64,000 bases of DNA, taken from an uncultured Desulfospira sp. (lineage in GTDB: Bacteria > Desulfobacterota > Desulfobacteria > Desulfobacterales > Desulfobacteraceae). The notes beneath the pieces are model-generated. The model was not told the DNA's origin, did no database searches, and saw nothing but the letters and a program-made list of their open reading frames with translations. The stretch is from positions 6,080,001 through 6,144,000 of the forward strand of contig OY760175.1 of the NCBI GenBank assembly GCA_963663165.1. The letters are read 5' to 3'. Positions 38,139-54,312 of the stretch are shown here, in pieces (position 1 is the stretch's first letter; each line of letters starts with the position of its first letter). Made by a program: the position numbers and the translations under genes.

Positions 38139-39158
38139 CTATAGACTATCCAGCCACTCAAGAACGTTTTGCTTGTTTTCCCACTGGATCAACTCCTCAA
38201 TCTTCGGATCAGATTTCAGGTGCTGTTTGGTGAACTGGATGAAGTTCTCTTGTAAATGTCGCTTCTGGCCTAGATCAAGCTTTAAGTAAACCATTGTGGA
38301 TTTGACATTAGAATGCCCCAAGCGATTCTTAATTTCAGATAAAGGCCGATCCTCTGAGAGCATTCGAACGGCACACGAATGACGGAAGCTATGGACGGGG
38401 TGCATGGTCGCTGTCCGCTTTGCCGGTAAAGCCTGTTCAAGGTAGTTTTTACAGATCCGGTTGATACCGTGGCGGGTCAAGCTTGTTCCTCTTTGGTTGA
38501 TGAACAGCCTTTTTTTAAACGGATGGATTGGCGTATTGCGATGTTCTTCAATATACTGATGCATAAGCTCTACTGTTTTCCCAAGCAACTGAACTTGTCG
38601 ATATCGGTTACCCTTCCCAAGAATCGCCAGAGTTTGATTTTCATAATCAAAATAATCCATCTCAAGGGTAGCGATTTCCGTTGCCCTGGCACCGGTATCA
38701 TATAATAGATACAGAAGGGTATAATCTCGGAACCCGTCCTTTCTTTTAAGTTGGACCGCATTAAGGATTTGATTGATCTCCTGGGGATACAAAAATCCGA
38801 TCAACTTGTGTTGGCTTCGTTTCCGGGGAATATCAAGGATCGCATTGGTCAGTTTTTGTTGCTCGGGATAAATAAAACGGATCATTTTGGCAAAAGACTT
38901 TAAAACGGCCAGGCGCTGGTTCCGGGTTTTAGCCGTGTTGGACCGTTTGGATTCAAGCTCATTGAGAAACTGCAAAATTAATTCTACCGTGATATGTTCC
39001 AGATTGAGCGAACTGACCTTTACGCTGTGGTACTCGGCAGCAAACGGTAAAAAAAAGCGCATGGTATCCCGGTAACTTTTGATCGTATTGGGGCGGCACC
39101 CTTTGACATAAGGCAGGTATTGGTCAAAAAATTGAACAACGCAACGGGTCAGGTTCAT
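38139..39158 (-). CDS. Tyrosine recombinase (RitC-like)
   Basis: TGARATE, GKG, HSFRHS, LGHS, TMVY; NTIKSYRD and TRNQRLA typical of the third RIT recombinase. Confidence 0.9.
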   Translation of the reverse strand: MNLTRCVVQFFDQYLPYVKGCRPNTIKSYRDTMRFFLPFAAEYHSVKVSSLNLEHITVELILQFLNELESKRSNTAKTRNQRLAVLKSFAKMIRFIYPEQQKLTNAILDIPRKRSQHKLIGFLYPQEINQILNAVQLKRKDGFRDYTLLYLLYDTGARATEIATLEMDYFDYENQTLAILGKGNRYRQVQLLGKTVELMHQYIEEHRNTPIHPFKKRLFINQRGTSLTRHGINRICKNYLEQALPAKRTATMHPVHSFRHSCAVRMLSEDRPLSEIKNRLGHSNVKSTMVYLKLDLGQKRHLQENFIQFTKQHLKSDPKIEELIQWENKQNVLEWLDSL

Positions 39159-40129
39159 GATTCATCCCTTCTGCCGGTGGTAAATTTGAACAGGCTGTCG
39201 CGGCTTTCAGCATCAACTGCTTTCAAATATTCCATGGTGTATTTATACTCAACATGACCCATATAGCCGGCAAGCACCGGCAGCACATTCCGGGGTGATT
39301 GTTTCCGGGCAATGGCTGCCTTCAAGGTGTTAATGGCAAAAGAGTGCCGTAAACAGTGCGGAGTGGGCTTCCCAAAGGTCGTGTCGCCGATAATTTTCCT
39401 TGGGCGGCGGATCCCGATTTGACGCACAGCATCGTGAAAAACAGAGCGAATACGGTTATCGTTCAAGCCGTTTTCCCCTATCCCCATGAACAGGTAGGGA
39501 TTCATATCGTTTTCAATTAAAGCGGCCCTGGTTAAAAGATAGTTGTCAATCTGCATGGCAGTTGATTTTGGAATAGGGATAAGACGGTCCTTTTTGAACT
39601 TGGTTTTCTCTATGTAAATCGTCTTTTCATCCGGCCGGTAATTTTTCAATCTCAGGCGCAAGGGTTCATTCATCCTCAGCCCACAGCGGGCAAGCAGAAG
39701 GATCACCAGATATTCACTGTAATCTTTAAGGAACCGCATAGGGGTTTGCCGGATCCGTCCGCATACCACCCCCAGTAACATTTCTACCTGCTCCGGTGAG
39801 AATATAAAGGGGATGAAGGTGCGTCGGGCCGGAGCGGTCACATCTTTCAAAGGGTTATCAAGATTTATCCGCTGCCGTTTCAGATAATCAAAAAAGCCTC
39901 GAACTACATTTAGAATGCTGGCTACGCCGGAGGGCTCAAGGCCAATCTCATTTTTAAAGGTGATATAAAAATGGGGCATCCAAATGTCTGAGAGATCCGG
40001 CTGCCTCATTAAAAAATCGTCAAAGGTAAGCAAGGCCCACCGGAGCATATGGCAACTGTATCCCAGTCCTTGCCGGTAAACAATAAAGTTTTCCATCTCT
40101 GTGGCCAAAAAGCTTTTAAACGGTTTCAT
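39155..40129 (-). CDS. Tyrosine recombinase (RitB-like)
   Basis: PFIFS, CGLRMNE, TKFKKDR, HCLRHSFA, YMGH, TMEYL. Confidence 0.9.
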   Translation of the reverse strand: MKPFKSFLATEMENFIVYRQGLGYSCHMLRWALLTFDDFLMRQPDLSDIWMPHFYITFKNEIGLEPSGVASILNVVRGFFDYLKRQRINLDNPLKDVTAPARRTFIPFIFSPEQVEMLLGVVCGRIRQTPMRFLKDYSEYLVILLLARCGLRMNEPLRLRLKNYRPDEKTIYIEKTKFKKDRLIPIPKSTAMQIDNYLLTRAALIENDMNPYLFMGIGENGLNDNRIRSVFHDAVRQIGIRRPRKIIGDTTFGKPTPHCLRHSFAINTLKAAIARKQSPRNVLPVLAGYMGHVEYKYTMEYLKAVDAESRDSLFKFTTGRRDES

Positions 40130-41033
40130 CGAACAACACCCGGCGCATCAATTCCTTGTGGATACTTAGATATACTTTTGTGGAATCAATGATGGAATGC
40201 CCCATCATTTCTTTGATTTCAAAAATGCCGGCACCTGCTTCCAGCATGTTTTGTGCAAAGGTGTGGCGCAGCCAATATCCTGTACCGGGAAGACCGGCAG
40301 CCCGCAACGCCTTTGTTAAATCGTGCCTGGTGAGCCAGGCACTTACAGCTCTGTAAGGTGGGCAATGGCTGGTTAAAAAAAGAGAGCGAGACTGACTTTT
40401 AGGCCTGCCTCCAACGATATAAGCGGTGATTGCTTTGATAACTTCATCGGGAATGGGCAATTGAAGGGGCTTTGCATTTTTTGTGTTTTCCAGGTTTAGC
40501 AGTCCTTTGGCAAAACAGATATCGTCCAGAGTAAGGCGGCTGATTTCAATGGGGCGCAATCCAAGATAATAAGCCAGGTGAACCTGTGCATAGACACGAA
40601 GCTCTTTGGATGTTGCACAGGGCAAATGATCAAATAACTGACGGACTTCACCGGGTCTTAAAAATTTAGGAGGCTTGACTTGAGCAAACATTGGCGGACC
40701 GGTCACAAGCGGGGCTAAATTCTGTTGGATCAAATGCCGTTCATTATACAGGTAGTGCAAAAAGCCTCGAAAACAGGAACGGTATACCCCCTGGGTACTC
40801 TTTGCATATGGGGCATTGAACCTTGCCAGAAAATCATCAACATGCCCTATGTTTATATTGACCAGTGAGACTCCCGATGTTTGCAGATAACTGTCAAACG
40901 CTTTGATAATTTTGGTCCTGCAACAGGTTTGAGAAGGAGAGCTTTCCTTGATTTTAAGCATATGGTCCAGATAATCCCGGCGGATCTGATCCAGATCATA
41001 ACCGGGCGGACTTTTGGGTGTCTGCTCAACCAT
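40116..41033 (-). CDS. Tyrosine recombinase (RitA-like, short)
   Basis: LGLRPIE, YWLRHTFA (first His replaced by Tyr), MGHS, TKVY. Confidence 0.85.
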   Translation of the reverse strand: MVEQTPKSPPGYDLDQIRRDYLDHMLKIKESSPSQTCCRTKIIKAFDSYLQTSGVSLVNINIGHVDDFLARFNAPYAKSTQGVYRSCFRGFLHYLYNERHLIQQNLAPLVTGPPMFAQVKPPKFLRPGEVRQLFDHLPCATSKELRVYAQVHLAYYLGLRPIEISRLTLDDICFAKGLLNLENTKNAKPLQLPIPDEVIKAITAYIVGGRPKSQSRSLFLTSHCPPYRAVSAWLTRHDLTKALRAAGLPGTGYWLRHTFAQNMLEAGAGIFEIKEMMGHSIIDSTKVYLSIHKELMRRVLFDETV

Positions 41034-41466
41034 GATCGGCCTCCATAACCAGTTTGCTCAAAATTTTTCCAACTGATTCAGGTTGACGGCTGTTCAGGGA
41101 AGATTTTTTTTGTACAGCAGATTGTATAAGGTTGGCCGGTAAGGAAAGCACCTGGTAAATGGTGCCGTCAAAGGCAATCAGATCATTTTCCATCAATCCA
41201 TCCCGAGCTTCAATGTACTGGTCCAGTTGCATTTTTAGCAGGGTGCATATTTTATCATAACTGTAAAAACTTAATCCGTTGCGGTCACCGGCCAGAACCA
41301 GGAAAAAATACAATAACAACTCGTCCCGGCTTAATGCTCGCAAAAATCCACCCGTAAGAAACCGATGGGGGATAAAACTAAATCCTCCTTTGATACAACG
41401 CACCCTTGAAGGGTTCAGGATTTCTTTTTTTACCATGCCGCGCCTCCAGTTTTTACGTTTATCCAT
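41026..41466 (-). CDS. Winged-HTH-like mobile-element protein
   Basis: GFSFIPHRFL..LLLYFFLVLAGDRNGLSFYSYDKIC; overlaps both neighbours; alternative start 41436. Confidence 0.7.
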   Translation of the reverse strand: MDKRKNWRRGMVKKEILNPSRVRCIKGGFSFIPHRFLTGGFLRALSRDELLLYFFLVLAGDRNGLSFYSYDKICTLLKMQLDQYIEARDGLMENDLIAFDGTIYQVLSLPANLIQSAVQKKSSLNSRQPESVGKILSKLVMEADHG

Positions 41467-41845
41467 ATCCCCGCCGGGGAAATTGTGTGACGACTTGACC
41501 TGAAGAGCCGCAGAACTGACAATATGGTTTGATTGGAAGGCCCTGAATCTGAAACAAAATCCACAATATTATTGTCCTACACCAAGCAGGCAGCACTGTG
41601 GAAGCTGTATCATCCATGTTTTTTGTCTCTTGAATTTTTTTTCGATGCCGACGCCGGTTCTCGGCTTCCCGATGCCGTCTTTTCCCCTTCTCGGTCTGGC
41701 GGTATCGTCGCTGTGCTTCTCTTTTGTTTCTGAGGATTCCGGCCTTACGGCAGTCCCTGCAACAATAGGCCTGCCCTCTCCAGCAGAACCTGCAAACAAA
41801 AAATACGAAATGGCACCATCGGCATGTATTTGGAATTAAAAGCAT
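41459..41845 (-). CDS. Cys-rich, basic zinc-finger-like protein
   Basis: CRWC..CRFC.RGQAYCCRDCR..AQRRYRQ..GKRRH, plus C-terminal CQFCG. Confidence 0.7.
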   Translation of the reverse strand: MLLIPNTCRWCHFVFFVCRFCWRGQAYCCRDCRKAGILRNKREAQRRYRQTEKGKRRHREAENRRRHRKKIQETKNMDDTASTVLPAWCRTIILWILFQIQGLPIKPYCQFCGSSGQVVTQFPRRGYG

Positions 41846-42232: not shown

Positions 42233-43105
42233 ATGAGCAGGACTTTAACCATTCAAGGACGTGAATTTTCAGAAGTTGATATACAAACGATACGCCATTT
42301 GATTAACGACAATCCCGCCTGGCACCGCACTCGTTTATCCAAAGAATTGTGTGCTCGCTGGGATTGGCGCACGGAAAAAGGTCTGCTCAAGGACATGGCC
42401 TGTCGAAGCATGCTGAGAAAACTTGAGCAAAAAGGGATGGTCACACTTCCCGTTGCCCGTCATAGCGGTAACCGTCAGCGGCGTATTCCCGATGTCCCCC
42501 ATGATTGTAAGCCGATAGAAACCACTTTGCGTAAGATCCGCCCGATACAATTGATACCGGTATCGGGCCGTGGAGATATTGATGATTTATTCCATTGCCT
42601 TATGGATCGACATCATTACCTTGGGTGTAAAGGGTATGTCGGAGAACATATGAAGTATATGGCTTTTGATCGCAATTCTCGTCCGGTTGCCTGCCTGCTT
42701 TTTGGCTCAGCAGCATGGAAAACGGCCCCTCGTGACCGATTCATCGGTTGGGATAGGTCGGCTCGTCGCAGGAACCTGCATATGACGACCAACAATACCC
42801 GATTTTTGATTTTGCCATGGATTCGAATTCCCCATCTTGCCAGTCATATTCTGGGTTCATGTCTTAGGCGGCTGAGCCGGGACTGGACAGCTAAATATGG
42901 TCACGATATCTGTCTGGTAGAAACTTTCGTGGATCGATCACGCTTTGCCGGAACTTGCTACCAGGCGGCAAATTGGCAAAAAATTGGTCAAAGCAAAGGG
43001 CGAAGCCGTCAAGACAGGCACCACAGACTTCAGGTGCCGATAAAAGACATCTATGTATACCCGTTGACTTCCAATTATAAAAAGCAGCTATGCACACAAA
43101 CTTGA
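42233..43105 (+). CDS. DUF4338 / DruA-like protein (IS passenger)
   Basis: HHYLG, RDRFIGW, TNNTRFLILPW, LASHIL, VETFVD, GTCYQAANW. Confidence 0.88.
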   Translation: MSRTLTIQGREFSEVDIQTIRHLINDNPAWHRTRLSKELCARWDWRTEKGLLKDMACRSMLRKLEQKGMVTLPVARHSGNRQRRIPDVPHDCKPIETTLRKIRPIQLIPVSGRGDIDDLFHCLMDRHHYLGCKGYVGEHMKYMAFDRNSRPVACLLFGSAAWKTAPRDRFIGWDRSARRRNLHMTTNNTRFLILPWIRIPHLASHILGSCLRRLSRDWTAKYGHDICLVETFVDRSRFAGTCYQAANWQKIGQSKGRSRQDRHHRLQVPIKDIYVYPLTSNYKKQLCTQT

Positions 43106-43162
43106 GGGTTTCAGTCATCGAAATGACAGGTAATTTTTCAACCTGCAATTCGAGGACTGATC

Positions 43163-44563
43163 ATGAAACTTGCTTCCACTATAAGGGATATTCGAACCCT
43201 TCTAACAAAAGCCGTAGCTGATTTCCAAAACCATCAAAATGCTAATATCCTGTGTGAGCAGGTACGGAACGGCCTCTTCATTATTGTGGAAGCATTTCTG
43301 GTTCCCGTCATTGAAAAGGCACTGTCTGACCCGGATCTTTTATCTGAACTGAAAATTGGTGCCGGTAAAAAGGGACTGCGTTTCAACGGATACCGCCCCA
43401 GCAGCATTCGATTATTGACAGGAACTACCCTGAGCATCCGATCCCCTTACTTTTCAAAAGTTGTTTCCAAACAACGGCCAGGCCCTAAAACAAAAAAACG
43501 ACAAAAGGGGACAGGCCGCCATTTTGGGCTTGATTACCTTGGTTTTATCGGCAGGTGTTCAACGCTGTTCGCTTCGTCGGTGGTCCATGCAGCATTGCTC
43601 TGCCCCTCTTTTGAAATTGCCCGAAGATCCCTGGAAAACCATGCAATCAACTTAAATGTCAAAACCATACGCCGCATAACAATGAATCTTGCACAGGAAG
43701 CTATGCCCCTGCGTGGCCGGGTATCTTTTGGAGATACTGATCGCGTTGGTGGCAAAACGGTTCTGGTTTGTATCGACGGCGGTCGCCTTCGAGAACGGAG
43801 GCCAAAACGGGGACGTAAATCAAAAGGCCAAAAGCGGCAGGGATATCATACTGAATGGAAAGAACCCATTCAGTTTGTCATACATATTGTCGATCCGGAC
43901 GGCACAATATCCAAAAAACACTTGCCGGTTTATGATGCCACAATGGGCGGTATTGATGCCGCTTTTGATATTCTTGAGATCTACTTGCGTGAATTAGATA
44001 TTCCCAAAGCCAAGCGTGTTGTTTTCTGCTGTGACGGTGCACGTAGCTATTGGAAGCGAACAGGCCCGCTGGCCAAACGGCTTGAAATCGAATCCTATTA
44101 TGAGGTAATCGACTACACCCATGCAAAACAGAATTTACATGAAATCGTGGACAAATTGCCAAAGAGAATCCCTATAAAAGAAAGAAACCGGATAGCAGAA
44201 TCTTGGAAGAACCTCCTTTGGGATGGCAGATTCAAAGACCTTAGAAAAGAAATTGTAAAACACATTACGTACCCTAAAAGGCGCATAGAAGCACTATCCA
44301 AATTTAAAAGTTACTTCGTGAAAAATCGAAACAGAATGCAGTATCGCCAGTTCCGCAGCCTGAAAATACCTACTGGCAGCGGCTGTGTTGAAAGTGCAAT
44401 ACGTCGGGTTATAAATCTCAGAATGAAATCACCGGGTATATTCTGGAAACCGGAAACATCCGAATCAATGTTGTTCTTAAGGAGTCAGCTCCTTTCCGGG
44501 AGGTGGAACATCTTGACTGACAATATCTTCATACAAATTCGGTCACTTTGCTTAGGCCACTAA
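43163..44563 (+). CDS. DDE transposase, ISKra4/ISLre2-like
   Basis: CIDGG, WKE, CDGA, IDYTHA, NRNRMQY, TGSGCVESAIRRVINLRMK..G..W. Confidence 0.85.
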   Translation: MKLASTIRDIRTLLTKAVADFQNHQNANILCEQVRNGLFIIVEAFLVPVIEKALSDPDLLSELKIGAGKKGLRFNGYRPSSIRLLTGTTLSIRSPYFSKVVSKQRPGPKTKKRQKGTGRHFGLDYLGFIGRCSTLFASSVVHAALLCPSFEIARRSLENHAINLNVKTIRRITMNLAQEAMPLRGRVSFGDTDRVGGKTVLVCIDGGRLRERRPKRGRKSKGQKRQGYHTEWKEPIQFVIHIVDPDGTISKKHLPVYDATMGGIDAAFDILEIYLRELDIPKAKRVVFCCDGARSYWKRTGPLAKRLEIESYYEVIDYTHAKQNLHEIVDKLPKRIPIKERNRIAESWKNLLWDGRFKDLRKEIVKHITYPKRRIEALSKFKSYFVKNRNRMQYRQFRSLKIPTGSGCVESAIRRVINLRMKSPGIFWKPETSESMLFLRSQLLSGRWNILTDNIFIQIRSLCLGH

Positions 44564-46428: not shown

Positions 46429-48149
46429 TTAAACAGGCCGTTGAAAGGCCTTAAGATCCTGCCGGTCCAGTTTCTGAAGTTCGCTTTTGGCATAGGCATA
46501 TCCTGCCTGAATAATGGCCTCCATGCTTTTGAACTCAAAAAAGCCAAACTCATGCACCGGGGGGCAAAAATACAGGTCAGCCTCCTTTTTAACCTGTTCC
46601 TTTTTGTAAAGGCTGGCAAGCATGGTGGACCGGACAAGAATGTCCAGGATGGTGGGATCACCCGAAGTGTTGGCAAAGGGTGAAATTTTTTGTAATGCCG
46701 TACGCCACGGGGATATCACCTGAGGGGTTACGGCCATGTTGTCACTCAGGCTCACATCTACGGCGATGAGTTCCCCATGGTTTATTCGTTTCATGATATC
46801 CCCTGGCAGATTGTTCAAGACCGCACCATCCACCAGTAAATCTGAATCTTTAAGCCAGGGGCGGAAAATACCGGGCAAAGAGCCGCTGGCCCGTAACGCT
46901 TTCCACAAAAGACCGGTCTGGTGGATCAACGGACAGGCCTGGGTCAGGTTGCTGGACACACAAAAGAAATTAATGGGCAAATCTTCAATGGTTTGAGCGC
47001 CAAAAACGTTTCTGGAGTTTCTGTTCACCCGGTTCCCGCTTAACAGGGAATAAACAGGAAGCGTGTAATCGTTTAAAGGCCGGGTCTGGATCCAGGCGGC
47101 CCGGTTTTTTTCAATAATGGTGTTAATATCCCACCCCATGGCATACTGGGCCGAAATAATGGCCCCAAAACTGGTTCCCCCCACAATGTCAATGGGAATC
47201 CCGGCCTCCTGCATGGCCTGGATGACCCCAATATGGGCAAGCCCCTTTGCCCCTCCGCCGCCCAGCACCAGTCCCACGGCGCTGTCAGTGATAAACCGGG
47301 CCAGCCGTTCCATATCCCCCTTTTTTTCAGGGCAGATATGATGGTGCCGGCTTACTGTCCGGTTGGCAAGCCAGTCCCTGGTTTTTTCAGGACGCTGCCC
47401 GGTTTCATGAAAAAGAACCAGGGTCTGATCAACCAGGGCCTCTTTTTTGCGTTTATCCTGAAAAGCCAGTTCAATGGGACCAGGTTCGCAGGGCCCGCCT
47501 GCCGGGGCCACCCAGATAATATGATCGGCCCTGTTCATCACCCGACGGGTCCATGGGGAAAATTCAAGGTCTGTTTCAAAAAGAATAAACTGATGTATGG
47601 CCTCTTGTTTTTCAAGCCATGCATCCAGACTCAAAGACCGGGGATCGGTCCGGCCGGCTTCGGAGATCCCCCGGGCACCGAGCAGGTCATCTACTCTTGG
47701 GCTTGAAAGATGAAGCACCGGGCCAAAGGGGTCTAAATATGCTGAAAGGCTTTTAACAAAGGAAGAAATGGGAAAAGGCGTTCCCGCCGGGGCTAGGCCA
47801 CCTTTTTAATCCGTCTGGCAGGTGTCGGGCATAAGCTTTGATTTTGAAGGCGTTTGATCAATACCTTCATCAGTCTTCGATTGACAATGGGGTACTTGTC
47901 CATGATGGTGAGAAAATCATTTTTTGTAAACCGGACCAGAAGGCTGTCCTGAATTGAAAATACCCCGGCTGAGCGGCATTCTTCTGAAATGACACCCATT
48001 TCCCCGATACAGTCTCCCCGGACAATTTTCCGCAAAAAGATTTTTCCGGGGATAAACACCTCAAGCCGTCCTTGTTTGACAATAAAAATGCGGTCTGCCG
48101 GATCTCCCTGGTTGAAAAGGATTTCCCCTTCTTTGAGGGTAATTTTCCT
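46429..48149 (-). pseudogene. cNMP-binding + patatin phospholipase (NTE-like), frameshifted and 5'-truncated
   Basis: cNMP domain (LKEGEILFNQGD..GEMGV..RSA) has no start codon; frame changes at ~47793-47797 (KKVA|APAGTPF); patatin GGGAKG, GTSFG, DGA intact. Confidence 0.75.
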
Positions 48150-49230: not shown

Positions 49231-52200
49231 TTAATTGGCCGCAATATAGGTTTCAAAAATTTTTTCATGGGAAATGTATTTTTCCCGCTTAACGTCCTGA
49301 AGATAGAACCTTATGGCGTTGACCCGCTTGAGAATTTCGTCTTCGGCCCGTTTTCGCATGATTTTTTTGGTCTCGATGATATCTTCTTTCAGATGCGGGG
49401 CTTTATCGGCATCGTAATATTTTTCGGTCTTGTATTTGATTCGTTTTTCAATTAACTCTTCGCGCAGCTTGTTGTGGGCGTCATCTAAGAACAGCACCTC
49501 GGGCATGAGATCGGCAAAGTGGGTTACGGCAATAATATCCTTGTCCCGCTGCCAGTAGCCGATCAGAAATTCAGGTTCAAGATCCTGGTAGTTCAGCAAG
49601 GGCATGTACATCCGCCGCAGATAGAGCAGCACTTTTTCAGTTTTTTTCCGGTGCCCGCCGATGATGACCGACCCGCCGATTTCATCTTTTCTAACCCCTT
49701 TGGTCCAGGGGGCGCCGGTAATGCCGAAATCAATGCAAAGGGGAATCTGCAACAGGGCCGACATGGTATTCAGGGCCAGGGCATATCCGGCAGAGGGGCC
49801 GCCGACATTGTATGATGCGGACAGCAGCTGGTGGTGGATGGAATACCGCTTAAGAAAATCCCCGAACAGCCAGGGAATGCTGACATCCGGGCACAGGCCC
49901 TGGATATAGTTTTTCACCATGGTCAGGGCCTCCTGGGCCGACTGCTTGGTCATTTGGACGGCCATGTCCATCTGGGCGGTCTGGGCCGAGGCCGTGGCCA
50001 CTGCCCCGGTGACAATGATGGGGGCATTCTCAACCCGGCCGGTGAGGCTGGTGGCAATGGGCATAAGCATGCCGGTCATGTCGTTGGCCCCCACGCCAAT
50101 GATAAATCCCACCTGGGGCTCCTTGCTCAGCTCGGTTTCCAAAAATTCGTTGAGCTGGACAGATCCCTTGCGCACCGGACTCTGGGAGATCTCCCTCCGG
50201 GCCGATTCCAGATGGTCCACCACAATGGGATACTCTTCCTCCCGGGTGATGTGATCCACACTCTCCAGTATCCGGTCATAATGCTCCACAAAGTTTTTCA
50301 GGTCGTTTTTGATTTTGGATTTGATCAGGGGCGGGGCTTTAAGGGCGTCGAGAATGCCCAGGACGGTTTTAAAGTTAAGCTTGACAAAGTTGTACTTTTC
50401 ATCCCGGGTTGAGGATTTAAGGTCCCGAAGCTTGAGCAGGACTTTAAATTCCGTGCTGCAAAGGGCAATGGCCTTTTCCGTAAACGAGGTATAGTCGGCC
50501 GGGGTGTTGCAGATTCCCTGGGCGGTTTCAATGATTTTTTCAACTTCGAATTCCCGATTGTGGGGAACATTTTTGAATTGTTTTTTGATAATTTCAAAAA
50601 TATCTTTTTGTCGCATATGCCCTGATATTTCAAGGGTTTTCAGCCGCTTTGACCGGATCAGGGCCGGGTCCAGGATATCCAGGCGGTTGGTGGTCAGCAC
50701 GGTAAAGACCTTGTTTAACGGGATCTCGCCGTCAATGATGTTTAAAAATTTGTTGGTCAGGGCGTCTGACGGCTGGCCCCCGGTGCCGCTTCGTTTGGGG
50801 GCCAAGGCATCCCCCTCGTCAAAGAAGATCACCGTGGGGGCGATCATTTTGGCAATGTCATACACCTTTTCAAGATTGGAGACGGCGCCGTGAACCGGAC
50901 TTGACGGGTCCTGAAGGGCCGAGGGGCTGGTGGCGATATCATGGACCTTGGTATTAGAGGAGAGCCAGGTCCTGACCAGATAGGTCTTGCCTGATCCCGG
51001 GGGACCGGTCAGTACCACGCCCTTGTCTTCACTGACCCCGTAGTGGAAGCAGTTGTTGGCCATCTCGGAGAACTTGTCCTTGATATCGCCCACATACTCC
51101 TCCCAGTTCAGTTTCCGGTCCATCCGGTCCACCACCTTGTCGTACAATTCTCCGTATACGTTTTTGGCCACTAACTGGAAGGCGTTTCTGATCAGGACGG
51201 GATCATCTAAAAACTCAAGGACAAAATCCCCCTGGATGGTGATGACCGATTCAATGAGTTTTCGTACATAGGCCGGGCTGATCTTCAGGCTTCTTTCTTT
51301 AAAAACAGCATAGATTTTATCGGCGGCCTGGTCGAGCTTTTCCGAGTCAGGCTTAAACCGGGTGGGGATCTGGTGGCGCCGGGTTTCAAGGATAATGATT
51401 TTTTTTAGGTTTTCCCGGTTCATCCAGTATTTGGAGATGTCGATGATCACGCCTTTTTCCACGAACCGCCGGTAAATGGCAGAGTCAAATCGGTGGGTCT
51501 GGTCGCTGGTGGCAATCACAAAGCAGTCCCGCCGGCCGTCGATGATCTCATCTAAGACAATATTGGAGGTGTCGATGAGGGTTCGCTGCTGTTTTTCCGT
51601 TCCCCCGCTGCCGGCCCCGGATTCAGATTTTCCAAAGGCCGAGTGGGCCTCTTCAATGTGGCGGATGGACGTGACCTTGGGGTGGCCCATGGCCCGTTTA
51701 AAATAGTTGCCCGGCTCTCCGGACAGGGCGGTCTGGTAATCGTTGGGGGTGATGACGGACATGTCTACGGAAAGCCCTAAATCTTCAAAATCCGTCAGGT
51801 TGCTCATGATCCGTTTTCTGAAGATCCGTTTAAGGATGGGAATTTTGGCCAGGCGCCGGTAAAAGTCGGTTTTCTTTTTTTTGGCGATCTGCATGGCAAA
51901 TTCCGGGTCCACATCTTCAAGCTGGGTGAGCAGGCTGTGGCCCCCTAAAATTTCGTCCCGTTTTTTGCGCCAGTCCACTGTGGGGATCACCTCGTTTCTG
52001 AACACCACCTTTTCAAGGGCTTCCCTTGCCGTGGCGCTTTTCCCCGAGCCCGAAGTCCCTTCAATGAGGACGATGGGGGCTTTGGGAACGTTGGGGTCTT
52101 CCAAATGCTCTTTTCGGATATGAACCCGGTAAATTTTTTCAAAAATCTCCTCTAGCTCCATGGGCACGTGAAGGTCGGTCAGTTCCCTGTCCAGTACCGC

Positions 52201-52548
52201 GATAAGGTAGAGGTATTCCGCCTTGGTCAGTTCTTTTTCAATGATCCGGTTCCAGGAGGCGGCCGGGTTAATTTCCCCTGAATATAAAAATCGTTTTTTC
52301 CAGTCGGTTAAGATCTGGGGGTTGTTGAGAACATTCATCTGCTTTTGCCGTTTTTTCATGAAAAAAACGACGAAGAAAAGATTTTTCACCCAGGCAATGA
52401 ACCGGTTGGGCGGTTTATACTGGTTCAGGCGGGACCTGACAAAGGCCTTGGTGTCATAGGTCCAGGTTTCCACCATGGATTCAATTTTTGCAATGGCCTC
52501 TTCAGGCAGGGTAATGTATCTTTTTTCCTTTGTGGGTCGTTTGGCCAT
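49231..52548 (-). CDS. Tandem AAA+ ATPase fused to a Lon-type (S16) protease domain
   Basis: AAA1 GTSGSGKS / HIEEAH; AAA2 GPPGSGKT / IFFDEGD / TTNRLDILDPALIRSKR; C-terminal GGPSAG..ITG..IIGGHRKK. Confidence 0.8.
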   Translation of the reverse strand: MAKRPTKEKRYITLPEEAIAKIESMVETWTYDTKAFVRSRLNQYKPPNRFIAWVKNLFFVVFFMKKRQKQMNVLNNPQILTDWKKRFLYSGEINPAASWNRIIEKELTKAEYLYLIAVLDRELTDLHVPMELEEIFEKIYRVHIRKEHLEDPNVPKAPIVLIEGTSGSGKSATAREALEKVVFRNEVIPTVDWRKKRDEILGGHSLLTQLEDVDPEFAMQIAKKKKTDFYRRLAKIPILKRIFRKRIMSNLTDFEDLGLSVDMSVITPNDYQTALSGEPGNYFKRAMGHPKVTSIRHIEEAHSAFGKSESGAGSGGTEKQQRTLIDTSNIVLDEIIDGRRDCFVIATSDQTHRFDSAIYRRFVEKGVIIDISKYWMNRENLKKIIILETRRHQIPTRFKPDSEKLDQAADKIYAVFKERSLKISPAYVRKLIESVITIQGDFVLEFLDDPVLIRNAFQLVAKNVYGELYDKVVDRMDRKLNWEEYVGDIKDKFSEMANNCFHYGVSEDKGVVLTGPPGSGKTYLVRTWLSSNTKVHDIATSPSALQDPSSPVHGAVSNLEKVYDIAKMIAPTVIFFDEGDALAPKRSGTGGQPSDALTNKFLNIIDGEIPLNKVFTVLTTNRLDILDPALIRSKRLKTLEISGHMRQKDIFEIIKKQFKNVPHNREFEVEKIIETAQGICNTPADYTSFTEKAIALCSTEFKVLLKLRDLKSSTRDEKYNFVKLNFKTVLGILDALKAPPLIKSKIKNDLKNFVEHYDRILESVDHITREEEYPIVVDHLESARREISQSPVRKGSVQLNEFLETELSKEPQVGFIIGVGANDMTGMLMPIATSLTGRVENAPIIVTGAVATASAQTAQMDMAVQMTKQSAQEALTMVKNYIQGLCPDVSIPWLFGDFLKRYSIHHQLLSASYNVGGPSAGYALALNTMSALLQIPLCIDFGITGAPWTKGVRKDEIGGSVIIGGHRKKTEKVLLYLRRMYMPLLNYQDLEPEFLIGYWQRDKDIIAVTHFADLMPEVLFLDDAHNKLREELIEKRIKYKTEKYYDADKAPHLKEDIIETKKIMRKRAEDEILKRVNAIRFYLQDVKREKYISHEKIFETYIAAN

Positions 52549-52651
52549 CTGTCTTTCCTTCAAGCATGGGTTAGAAGTTCTTCCGAATCGGTTCCGGCCC
52601 CTTCATGAAACGCGTTTTTGCGTCCTTAAGGAAATGATATCCGGGGCGTTT

Positions 52652-53620
52652 TTAATTGCCGGCCTGTTGTTCGGTCCCGGAAGCGGTAACGCCGGGAGTG
52701 CCGGTGGCCGGGGAGGGCAGGGTGAGTGCCGGTGACTTCCCGCTGTCATGGAGGACAAAGGTTTTCTGGTTTGATTCGGTCTTCTCATAGGCGGTGGCCC
52801 ATTTTTGCTGGGATAAAAATTCAAACAGATTCGGGTTGACCTGACGGCCTTGTTGTCCGCCTAAGGCCAGGTGGAGGGCCTGGATGCCGTCAAGGTAGGC
52901 CTTGTATAGTTTTTTGATTCGCTGGGCTTCCTGGTCCGCCGCATAGTTATCCGCCTCTGCGATGAGCTGGCGCCGTTTTTTCTCTTCCGTGGCTTCCACT
53001 AACTTATCGCCGAACCGTGTTTCGTTGAGTACAAAACTGACCACCTCAATGCCGTACTTTCCCTCAAGGGTGGGGCCGTTCTGGTTGATGGGCCGGTTTT
53101 TCAGGGCATGGAAGATTTCTTCTTTAATGGTTTCCCTGTCCGAGATCAGCCGGTTGACCTCTTTGCCCTGTAAAATATCCTTGGCAATGCCGTCGTAATC
53201 GCCCTGGAGAAGGATCTCAGGGGATAGATTCTCAATGCCCCAGACCTTAAGGTCCTTGATCCGGAAAGTCATCAGCGCAGAGGTCCACAGGGCCACATTT
53301 TCCCGGGAAATGATCTTAATGGGGTCAGTGGCACCGCCAATGTACATGTTCTGGTTCATCAAGGGGACCTCTTTTTCCAGCCGGGTAAAAAACGGAAGCC
53401 TGAAATGCCAGCCCACATCGGTGACCGCCTGCCGTTTCCCCCCAAACTGTTCAAGGATCACCGCGTAGTTGAACTTGACTTTATAGATCACCTGGGTGGA
53501 ATACACCACGGCGGCCATGGAATAAATCAGGGCAAGGCTGACCAGTAAAAAAGCGAGTCTTCTCACCATGGTGAAAACCCGGGCCCGCTGCAGAAAAACT
53601 TCAGGTTGCTGTTCTTTCAT
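52652..53620 (-). CDS. SPFH (band 7/prohibitin/HflC-like) membrane protein
   Basis: N-terminal TM, VILEQFGG..VGWHFRLPFF, YGIEVV, helical EAEA-type region. Confidence 0.82.
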   Translation of the reverse strand: MKEQQPEVFLQRARVFTMVRRLAFLLVSLALIYSMAAVVYSTQVIYKVKFNYAVILEQFGGKRQAVTDVGWHFRLPFFTRLEKEVPLMNQNMYIGGATDPIKIISRENVALWTSALMTFRIKDLKVWGIENLSPEILLQGDYDGIAKDILQGKEVNRLISDRETIKEEIFHALKNRPINQNGPTLEGKYGIEVVSFVLNETRFGDKLVEATEEKKRRQLIAEADNYAADQEAQRIKKLYKAYLDGIQALHLALGGQQGRQVNPNLFEFLSQQKWATAYEKTESNQKTFVLHDSGKSPALTLPSPATGTPGVTASGTEQQAGN

Positions 53621-54312
53621 ACCTGCTCCTTTGGTGTAAAGATAAATGTCGGGGTGCCGTTATAACCGGCGAAAAAAAACGTTTAAATGGGTAGATCTTC
53701 AACTTCAGGACGCGAACGAAGAGAAGCTGGTTTAATTAGGAAATTCAAGAATATAAAAAGTATACATGAAGAGTTGGTAATGGTCAAAACATATTTGTGT
53801 TCTCAACGTTAACCGTTGATTCCGGCCATGGCGGCACCGCATGGAAAAGTACAGGATGGGCGGTATACGGGTTAATTCCCCTGTCCTTCAGGTATGCCCG
53901 CGATCAAGATAAATGAGATAACTGAAGTCATATTCAGATGCCGGTTATTTGAACTGAATGTGAAATATTTTTCACAGGTTATTACCTTTTTTACCCAAAG
54001 TGTCCAAATTTTTTCTCTATAAAAAAGTTCATAAAAAATGCTTAAATCCCTTCTGTAAAGGGGAATAAACTTTTTGAGATTTGGTCTGATTTTTGCATAT
54101 TTATCCATTGATTATCCCAAAAAATGGTTTCCGGTCTATGGTAAATTTGCTTTTTTTACAGGCCGGTCATAGAAGAACATGAATGAAGAAATTTAAAAAA
54201 CGCTGTATTTGGAACGAGCTTTAAGATCGCTTTTCATATTGTGTCTCAGGTGTTCATGCAACAGGGCGGAAGGTTCGCCTTGTGTAACCATATAATCATA
54301 ATGGAGGAAATC

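Follow-up and report, generated by a model that had tools for sequence, protein, structure and literature searches.

A gene pair encoding an SPFH protein and a putative AAA-AAA-Lon_C protease

In the current analysis we have considered a stretch of 64,000 nucleotides (the window) from contig OY760175.1 of an uncultured Desulfospira sp. (GenBank assembly GCA_963663165.1, positions 6,080,001 to 6,144,000), which encodes two adjacent genes that are a well-conserved, apparently undescribed variant of the SPFH-associated AAA+ proteases. The SPFH/band-7 gene (52652-53620, minus strand, as are all features of the pair given below) codes for a protein of 322 residues with the Pfam domain Band_7. It is situated upstream of the gene (49231-52548, ATG start) of a protein of 1105 residues and 126 kDa that comprises two AAA modules and a C-terminal Lon_C domain. 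The two genes are separated by 103 nt, in agreement with an earlier note on this DNA, which had described an SPFH gene about 100 bp upstream of an open reading frame (ORF) of about 1105 residues on the same strand; the P-loop, Walker B, second region of homology (SRH) and Lon-like motifs quoted there are all present. An alternative in-frame TTG start at 52563 would extend the large ORF by 5 residues. The host genome has one copy of each gene. The closest named relatives, from Desulfospira and Desulfobacter, are 89-98% identical, and the pair is also encoded by the cultured organisms Desulfobacula toluolica (CCK82476/CCK82477) and Desulforapulum autotrophicum HRM2.

The Lon_C domain and its putative catalytic dyad

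A Lon_C (S16) domain has been assigned to residues 800-1022 (49483-50151) of the large protein on the basis of Pfam, PDB sequence matches and fold. The Pfam match (residues 801-975) is narrowly above the cut-off, with 23.6 bits against 21.1. When the C-terminal 305 residues are compared with the PDB, 22 of the 24 sequence matches at E-values up to 10 are Lon proteases, the best of them being Bacillus subtilis LonBA (E 6e-5). In the AlphaFold model of the protein (mean predicted local distance difference test score, pLDDT, 80.7; predicted template modelling score 0.55) this domain superimposes on Methanocaldococcus jannaschii Lon (1xhk) with a Z score of 17.8 and a root-mean-square deviation (rmsd) of 3.0 over 182 of 187 residues, and is similarly close to Escherichia coli Lon (1rr9; Z 17.2, rmsd 2.7) and B. 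subtilis LonBA (Z 17.7).

The putative catalytic dyad is made up of Ser919 (codon 49792-49794), which lies in a GGPSAG motif, and Lys969 (codon 49642-49644), together with Thr944. Conservation has been assessed in 152 homologs with at least 92% query coverage and more than 1040 residues, fragments having been dropped; 121 of them share at least 45% identity with the query (close homologs) and 31 share less (distant homologs). All 152 full-length homologs, at identities down to 31%, have Ser919, Thr944 and Lys969 without exception, and Ser919 is preceded by Pro918 in each of them. Since these three residues are invariant, whereas Lys968 and Lys972 close by differ among the distant homologs, the pattern is not a matter of chance. 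Lys968 and Lys972 had also been considered as the catalytic lysine and were rejected, both being variable among the distant homologs.

In M. jannaschii Lon (1xhk) the counterpart of Lys969 in the alignment is the lysine of the IGGxxxK motif. Lys969 is situated at Ser+50, with 49 residues in between, whereas in known Lon proteases exactly 42 residues separate the two (PMC9569914, accessible part). The insert of 7 residues by which the earlier note had accounted for this spacing could be located between Thr944 (Ser+25) and the IGG motif. Ratios of nonsynonymous to synonymous substitution rates (dN/dS), obtained from 10 hand-picked close pairs, reveal purifying selection across the domains of the protease (Lon domain 0.034, D2 0.033, D1 0.05-0.06). 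The least constrained part, at 0.20, is the C-terminal helical hairpin (residues 1023-1105, 49234-49482), which has helices at 1023-1044 and 1051-1084 in the model. Judged by conservation, the Ser-Lys protease site looks active.

The tandem AAA modules

The Lon_C domain is preceded by a divergent classical AAA module, D1 (residues 151-470, 51139-52098), and a second classical AAA module, D2 (residues 471-789, 50182-51138). Walker A motifs are found at residues 164-171 and 515-522, Walker B motifs at 297-302 and 574-580, and the SRH of D2 at 619-635. D2 matches Pfam AAA (residues 511-637, E 3e-27) and is most similar to VAT, Cdc48 and p97; its lid holds an 85-residue helical insert (693-776). 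D1 has no Pfam match to the AAA core. Without its 71-residue insert it aligns with D2 (hhalign probability 94.8, E 5e-8), and also with both modules of generic tandem AAA proteins. Fold searches across both modules return p97, Cdc48, NVL and Rix7, and in a Woesearchaeota homolog (P0125) a single CDC48-profile match spans D1 through D2 (residues 271-685 against profile positions 242-664). These comparisons confirm that D1-D2 is classical and colinear with the D1-D2 of Cdc48, and with the Lon_C matches they bear out the two AAA modules and the Lon_C fold proposed in the earlier note. As NCBIfam models, CDC48 (88.6 bits, cut-off 802.65) and lon (38.4 bits, cut-off 608) are both far below cut-off for this protein.

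The catalytic residues of D2, namely Lys521, Glu578, Asn621, Arg632 and Arg635, are invariant in 152/152 homologs. D1 keeps Lys170 in 152/152, Glu300 in 151/152 and the Arg finger Arg361 in 149/152, but has no sensor-1 Asn. The pore loop of D1 is of the type A-L-S-G in the Desulfospira protein, with Leu275, and M-W-Y-G in most distant homologs; 25 of the 31 distant homologs have W-Y at this place, and 111 of the 121 close ones, the Desulfospira protein included, have Leu. The pore loop of D2 lacks an aromatic residue and is of the P-V-H-G or P-I-D-G type in nearly all 152. Because the W-Y loop of the distant homologs is in D1 and not in D2, D1 is favoured as the ring that grips. The arrangement in Cdc48 is the reverse, with the aromatic residue in D2 rather than D1, and the TMWYGE loop in D1 of the distant homologs presumably resembles the D2 motif of Cdc48. 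Of the Cdc48-like two-ring unfoldase that had been proposed for this protein, the colinear modules therefore stand; the term unfoldase is less secure, D2 being non-aromatic and D1 carrying Leu in most close homologs.

N-terminal domain, inserts and possible membrane contact

The N-terminal domain (residues 1-150, 52099-52548) is mostly helical in the model. No family in Pfam or NCBIfam has been assigned to it and its Atlas matches are all below 0.9, although it may have a known fold. Its helix 49-66 is hydrophobic and basic, being basic in all 17 homologs shown, and is a candidate peripheral membrane anchor. D1 has a helical insert (residues 185-256, 51781-51996) that separates Walker A from the pore loop and includes a basic amphipathic helix, which like helix 49-66 is basic in most homologs. 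In LonB the membrane anchor sits between Walker A and Walker B (PMC9569914, accessible part).

Peripheral membrane binding by helix 49-66 and the D1 insert is plausible. The earlier note had described a membrane-associated machine; the protease has no transmembrane helix, and its association with the membrane can therefore only be peripheral.

The SPFH protein

The SPFH protein is comprised of a basic N-terminal helix, one transmembrane helix, the SPFH domain, a short coiled coil (206-252), a C-terminal helix and a low-complexity tail. Pfam Band_7 matches residues 48-232 (E 1e-14). No NCBIfam match has been obtained, and the best sequence matches of its profile are stomatins, which are weak (E 0.02-0.1). 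The structural model is of low confidence (pLDDT 57); its top 11 fold matches are all SPFH proteins (Z 9.7-11.5), which tie at Z 10-11.5 and single out none of the subfamilies HflK/C, QmcA, stomatin and prohibitin. Searching the host genome by tblastn with the SPFH gene gives no second match, and its subfamily is distinct from the other SPFH genes of that genome. An Atlas match at 0.96 to an archaeal SPFH cluster, which comes with no sequences, is a lead only. A complex prediction with protease residues 1-470 and SPFH residues 1-302, run without controls, gave a score of 0.00 and has been counted neither way. The SPFH partners in alignment A3 are 53-88% identical.

The transmembrane helix (about residues 22-40, 53501-53557) follows a conserved Arg-rich segment. 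Among the best 120 of 1326 SPFH matches, all at least 75% identical, its mean hydropathy is 2.4, with 4.0 lysine and arginine residues (K/R) before it and 2.4 after it, and the excess is on the N-terminal side in 112 of the 120. By the positive-inside rule the topology is probably N-in/C-out, with a periplasmic SPFH domain as in HflK/C. The FtsH-HflK/C complex combines a periplasmic cage with AAA and peptidase domains in the cytoplasm (PMC12048511, accessible part); QmcA differs in orientation, its SPFH domain being predicted as cytoplasmic (PMC10434171, accessible part). Since the K/R bias favours the HflK/C-like orientation, the SPFH domain would be on the opposite membrane face from the protease and may not cage it. 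The proposal that the protease has its own SPFH scaffold is thus supported by a fixed genetic linkage in Desulfobacterota, described below, and is qualified by the probable location of the SPFH domain.

Conservation and distribution of the gene pair

The linkage of the two genes, which the earlier note had proposed to follow across homologs, has been examined within Desulfobacterota, where many of the genomes are kin, so that the counts overstate independence. Among the 29 named loci, 26 have the SPFH gene directly upstream of the protease gene; the remaining 3 begin inside the protease gene, which gives 26/26 of those assessable. A sample of 401 genomes of the phylum has the protease in 10, including the host genome, with the SPFH gene adjacent in 9/9 of the others. 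Of the 54 loci from a metagenome scan, 3 belong to the family; they are Desulfobacterota-like, with 48-81% identity, and the SPFH gene is adjacent in the 2/2 that are assessable. The gaps between the genes are mostly below 50 nt (1 nt in four loci), and order and spacing are fixed down to 48% identity.

At the level of the order, 301 genomes include 61 with the SPFH gene, 63 with the protease and 60 with both, about a fifth of the order; 56 of the 64 protease copies are adjacent to the SPFH gene on one contig. Seven discordant genomes were checked, of which six are explained by contig breaks and one (G668) by a deletion through both genes; G596 and G515 are not among these seven. Whole families keep the pair (f137 7/7, f121 3/3). 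One genome (G673) carries the pair in duplicate, and inheritance of the two genes is strictly one-to-one. The flanking genes differ from locus to locus, from which it follows that the pair moves as a unit. It is an accessory, dedicated pair.

A few loci deserve separate mention. The deletion in G668 (L103:6417-6578) is a single out-of-frame event that places protease residue 453 immediately after SPFH residue 54, removing most of the SPFH protein and protease residues 1-452; it is either a decaying operon or an assembly error. At 11 of the 29 named loci the protease gene faces, at its 3' end, a convergent FloA-NfeD operon, which is another SPFH-type system (L009:11332-14925, L010, L011, L012, L014, L023-L026, L028 and L029); it is absent at this position in the window. 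An Hsp20 gene lies directly downstream of the protease gene on the same strand in 2 of the 9 distant loci (L047:1200-1727, L048:9608-10060). One locus (L046:14824-16775) has two more Band_7 genes, an HflK/C-like pair, divergent and upstream of the SPFH gene. Another (L023:8001-11317) has a break in the protease ORF near residue 976, which leaves it in two frames.

The wider family

A word-index search for homologs of the protease yielded 728 matches, of which the best 120 are listed, and a search against representatives extended the family to full-length relatives at 31-39% identity. The named distant relatives belong to Woesearchaeota, Nanoarchaeota, Falkowbacteria, Parcubacteria and Marinimicrobia, DPANN and candidate phyla radiation (CPR) names being among them. 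In a family tree made by a quick method the Desulfobacterota-type sequences form one branch (support 99); since the tree is unrooted, no donor is claimed. No family member has been found in the viral contigs searched with alignments A1, A2 and A3, three matches of A2 being generic AAA stretches, and the plasmids searched gave no family match.

Six proteins of 695-733 residues (P0135, P0310-P0314) stop at the same point in the lid insert of D2, and a protein of 405 residues (P0151) that carries Lon_C with the dyad begins at this very point. This suggests a natural split form, made up of an AAA-AAA protein of about 720 residues and a Lon_C protein of 405. In a further protein (P0160) the Lon-like and C-terminal region of the family is fused to a caspase (C14) domain, and its GPSAG motif is altered.

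Comparison with known systems

The AAA-AAA-Lon_C protein belongs to neither Lon, Cdc48 nor FtsH, and its mode of working would be most like that of FtsH with HflK/C. In both cases a classical-clade AAA protein is fused to a protease and paired with an SPFH scaffold, probably across the membrane. FtsH differs in its Zn protease (M41) in place of a Ser-Lys Lon domain, in its single AAA module, and in being anchored by transmembrane segments with a periplasmic domain and served by two SPFH genes, where the present protease has neither a transmembrane nor a periplasmic domain and one SPFH gene. Further pairings of AAA proteases with SPFH proteins are those of the m-AAA protease with prohibitin and the i-AAA protease with SLP-2.

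With the Lon proteases (LonA, LonB, LonBA and LonC; MEROPS S16) the protein shares the C-terminal Lon_C fold and the active-site Thr and Lys. It shares with LonA and LonBA the GPSAG motif with Pro before Ser, and with LonB an insert between Walker A and Walker B. The Lon proteases have one AAA module, of the HCLR clade, and the shorter Ser-Lys spacing. LonB further has Asp before the catalytic Ser, and its insert is a transmembrane anchor, whereas here Pro918 is present and the insert is not hydrophobic enough for such a role.

The tandem classical modules resemble those of Cdc48, p97 and VAT (type II classical AAA), which provide the best sequence and fold matches. The N-domain of these proteins is a double-psi beta-barrel, and the 25 of 27 Pfam matches listed for the protease include none to the CDC48 N-domain. 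The protease differs from them in its helical N-domain, its D1 insert and the insert in the lid of D2. Cdc48 and VAT work with a separate 20S (archaeal VAT-20S), whereas the protease here is fused in cis, and the aromatic pore loop of its family is in D1 and not in D2.

BrxL, RadA/Sms and ComM also have a Lon_C fold fused to a non-Lon ATPase, and act on DNA. The Lon domain of BrxL lacks the Ser-Lys dyad (PMC12839542, accessible part) that is invariant in the SPFH-linked protease. The SPFH-NfeD operons (QmcA-YbbJ, FloA-NfeD, PH1510/1511) likewise comprise an SPFH gene and a partner, sometimes a protease; their partner is NfeD, and here it is a Lon-type protease of 126 kDa, presumably ATP-dependent.

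No tandem classical AAA form is among the Lon architectures that were surveyed in 91 genomes in 2008 (PMC2605481, accessible part), and the accessible parts of PMC11188069, PMC6393860, PMC5070193 and PMC8630662 make no mention of the AAA-AAA-Lon_C architecture. The view of the earlier note that this architecture has no published description agrees with our search of the literature, from which subscription journals are mostly absent.

Proposed mechanism and alternatives

From the combined observations we infer a physical cooperation of the SPFH protein and the protease in ATP-dependent proteolysis, the pair being an operon of two genes for a probably self-compartmentalising protease at the membrane. 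By analogy with the classical AAA and Lon families, the large protein would form a hexamer with three stacked tiers, D1, D2 and the Lon chamber. The basic amphipathic helices of its N-face (49-66 and that of the D1 insert) may provide a peripheral contact with the inner membrane from the cytoplasm. The substrate would be gripped by D1, where the pore loop is kept; D2, with all catalytic residues and no aromatic pore loop, would hydrolyse ATP and couple to the chamber or gate it; and the conserved Ser919 and Lys969 would carry out the cleavage. The SPFH ring would fence a membrane patch, its dome most likely periplasmic as that of HflK/C, and could act by way of the lipid it encloses and of its conserved N-terminal helix in the cytoplasm to recruit or regulate the protease. 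Membrane or membrane-bound proteins are suggested, more tentatively, as substrates. FtsH-HflK/C, with its periplasmic cage and cytoplasmic protease, is a precedent for such a complex (PMC12048511, accessible part). The FloA-NfeD and Hsp20 genes next to the pair in some loci, as neighbours linked to proteostasis, also speak for it. For the whole picture, in which a hexamer of the AAA-AAA-Lon protease is docked beneath a membrane patch fenced by SPFH, the chances appear to be even.

Several observations weigh against this picture. The best 19-residue hydropathy of the protease is only 1.42, the hydropathy maxima of the family fall mostly in Lon beta-strands and not in anchors, and the hydrophobic moments of the amphipathic helices are not above those of internal helices. 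With a periplasmic SPFH domain, no more than about 20 residues of the SPFH protein would be within reach of the protease. Processive threading is uncertain in the close clade, because in those 111 of 121 close homologs the pore loops of both rings are non-aromatic, and because the sensor-1 Asn is missing from D1. The pair is accessory, being found in 10 of 401 genomes of the phylum, and the host genome otherwise carries 5 full-score Lon_C genes and 10 other Band_7 genes. The FloA-NfeD neighbours, which come from related genera, may represent one event.

The same partnership could be arranged on one side of the membrane, with the SPFH domain cytoplasmic as predicted for QmcA and the cage enclosing or capping the protease or its substrates. 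For a protease that has no transmembrane helix a scaffold on its own side is the simplest tether; the stomatins as best, though weak, matches of the SPFH profile and the 2.4 K/R that also follow the transmembrane helix are in keeping with this. The K/R bias in 112 of 120 homologs favours the N-in orientation, and a coiled coil as short as 206-252 would hardly form a cage holding a hexamer of about 760 kDa, so that we regard this arrangement as unlikely. A similarly low probability is given to the possibility that the AAA rings serve to build up, take apart or trim the SPFH ring or one bound client, the Lon chamber cutting only chains that are already loose, as in LonC. The loss of the aromatic pore loop, family-wide in D2 and in the close clade also in D1, would fit such a remodeller, as would the strict one-to-one inheritance, including that of the duplicated pair, if the substrate is a dedicated one; in yeast Cdc48 the absence of the D1 aromatic residue is reported to limit threading to 20S and so restrain degradation (PMC5511170, accessible part). 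It is hard to reconcile with the W-Y loop of D1 in the distant homologs, the Walker A, Walker B and Arg-finger residues kept in both rings, and a protease domain that is covalently attached and strongly selected.

A role as an effector triggered by stress or infection, in defence or envelope surveillance, where the SPFH ring would sense membrane damage or injection and switch the protease on, seems improbable, and a defence function in particular is a faint possibility. The patchy distribution and variable flanks, the relatives among DPANN- and CPR-named proteins and the caspase fusion of P0160 are in its favour; pairs of an ATPase and a protease are known in defence, the match to IteA reaching 42 bits against a cut-off of 510. 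Against it, of the 87 proteins that flank the pair in 17 loci only 2 have PADLOC matches at E-values of at most 1e-15, one to a profile of CARF-AAA-HTH/RtcR-type regulators and one to the mad2 profile; those of the protease itself are short AAA stretches, and the SPFH protein has none. Moreover, entire families keep the pair (f137, f121) with high sequence conservation, and the viral contigs and plasmids searched hold no member. There is likewise little reason to expect that the two genes are co-regulated and act separately, the one product as a soluble AAA+ protease of the cytoplasm, the other as a membrane scaffold unrelated to it. The protease without a transmembrane segment and the probably periplasmic SPFH domain would allow it, but no assessable genome has one intact gene alone despite the presence of the pair in about a fifth of the order, and gene order and spacing are fixed down to 48% identity.

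If the docked SPFH-protease complex is considered in a wider context, it may represent an unrecognised family of ATP-dependent proteases beside Lon, FtsH, Clp, HslUV and the proteasome: a one-chain, three-ring combination of a Cdc48-type motor and a peptidase that lacks a transmembrane helix, extracts membrane proteins from the cytoplasmic side, is steered by SPFH across the bilayer, and is common to sulfate reducers, CPR and DPANN. We hold this broader proposal tentatively, as somewhat less than an even chance. If true, it would be a prokaryotic, ubiquitin-free counterpart of the erlin/p97-type extraction. AAA+ protease architectures are few, and none has been found that fuses a tandem classical (Cdc48-type) motor with a Lon chamber. 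With the pore loop in one ring and the best-kept catalytic site in the other, the single-chain, two-gene system would allow one to ask how two-ring motors divide their labour. It would also provide a third, independent SPFH-protease pairing in which to ask if SPFH rings are inhibitors of proteases, feed them with substrate or only hold them in position. The cultured hosts make the pair experimentally accessible now.

Other features of the window

A sigma-70-like site (53759-53787, minus strand, 10/12 match) lies about 140 nt upstream of the SPFH start and is a lead only, 8 such sites having been found against 5.5 +/- 2.5 expected by chance. The neighbours of the pair in the window code for a nitroreductase and a PEP-CTERM protein, which by Pfam are unrelated to it. 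At 39155-41845 a tandem pair of tyrosine recombinase genes is followed by 2 small unannotated ORFs (146 and 128 residues), which together have the look of a mobile element. An ORF with a DruA domain (PF14236) and an ORF of 466 residues without a Pfam match, transposase-like by eye, follow at 42233-44563. At 46429-48059 a gene of the patatin/NTE-type phospholipases is apparently in pieces, its cyclic-nucleotide-binding-like part being a separate upstream ORF.

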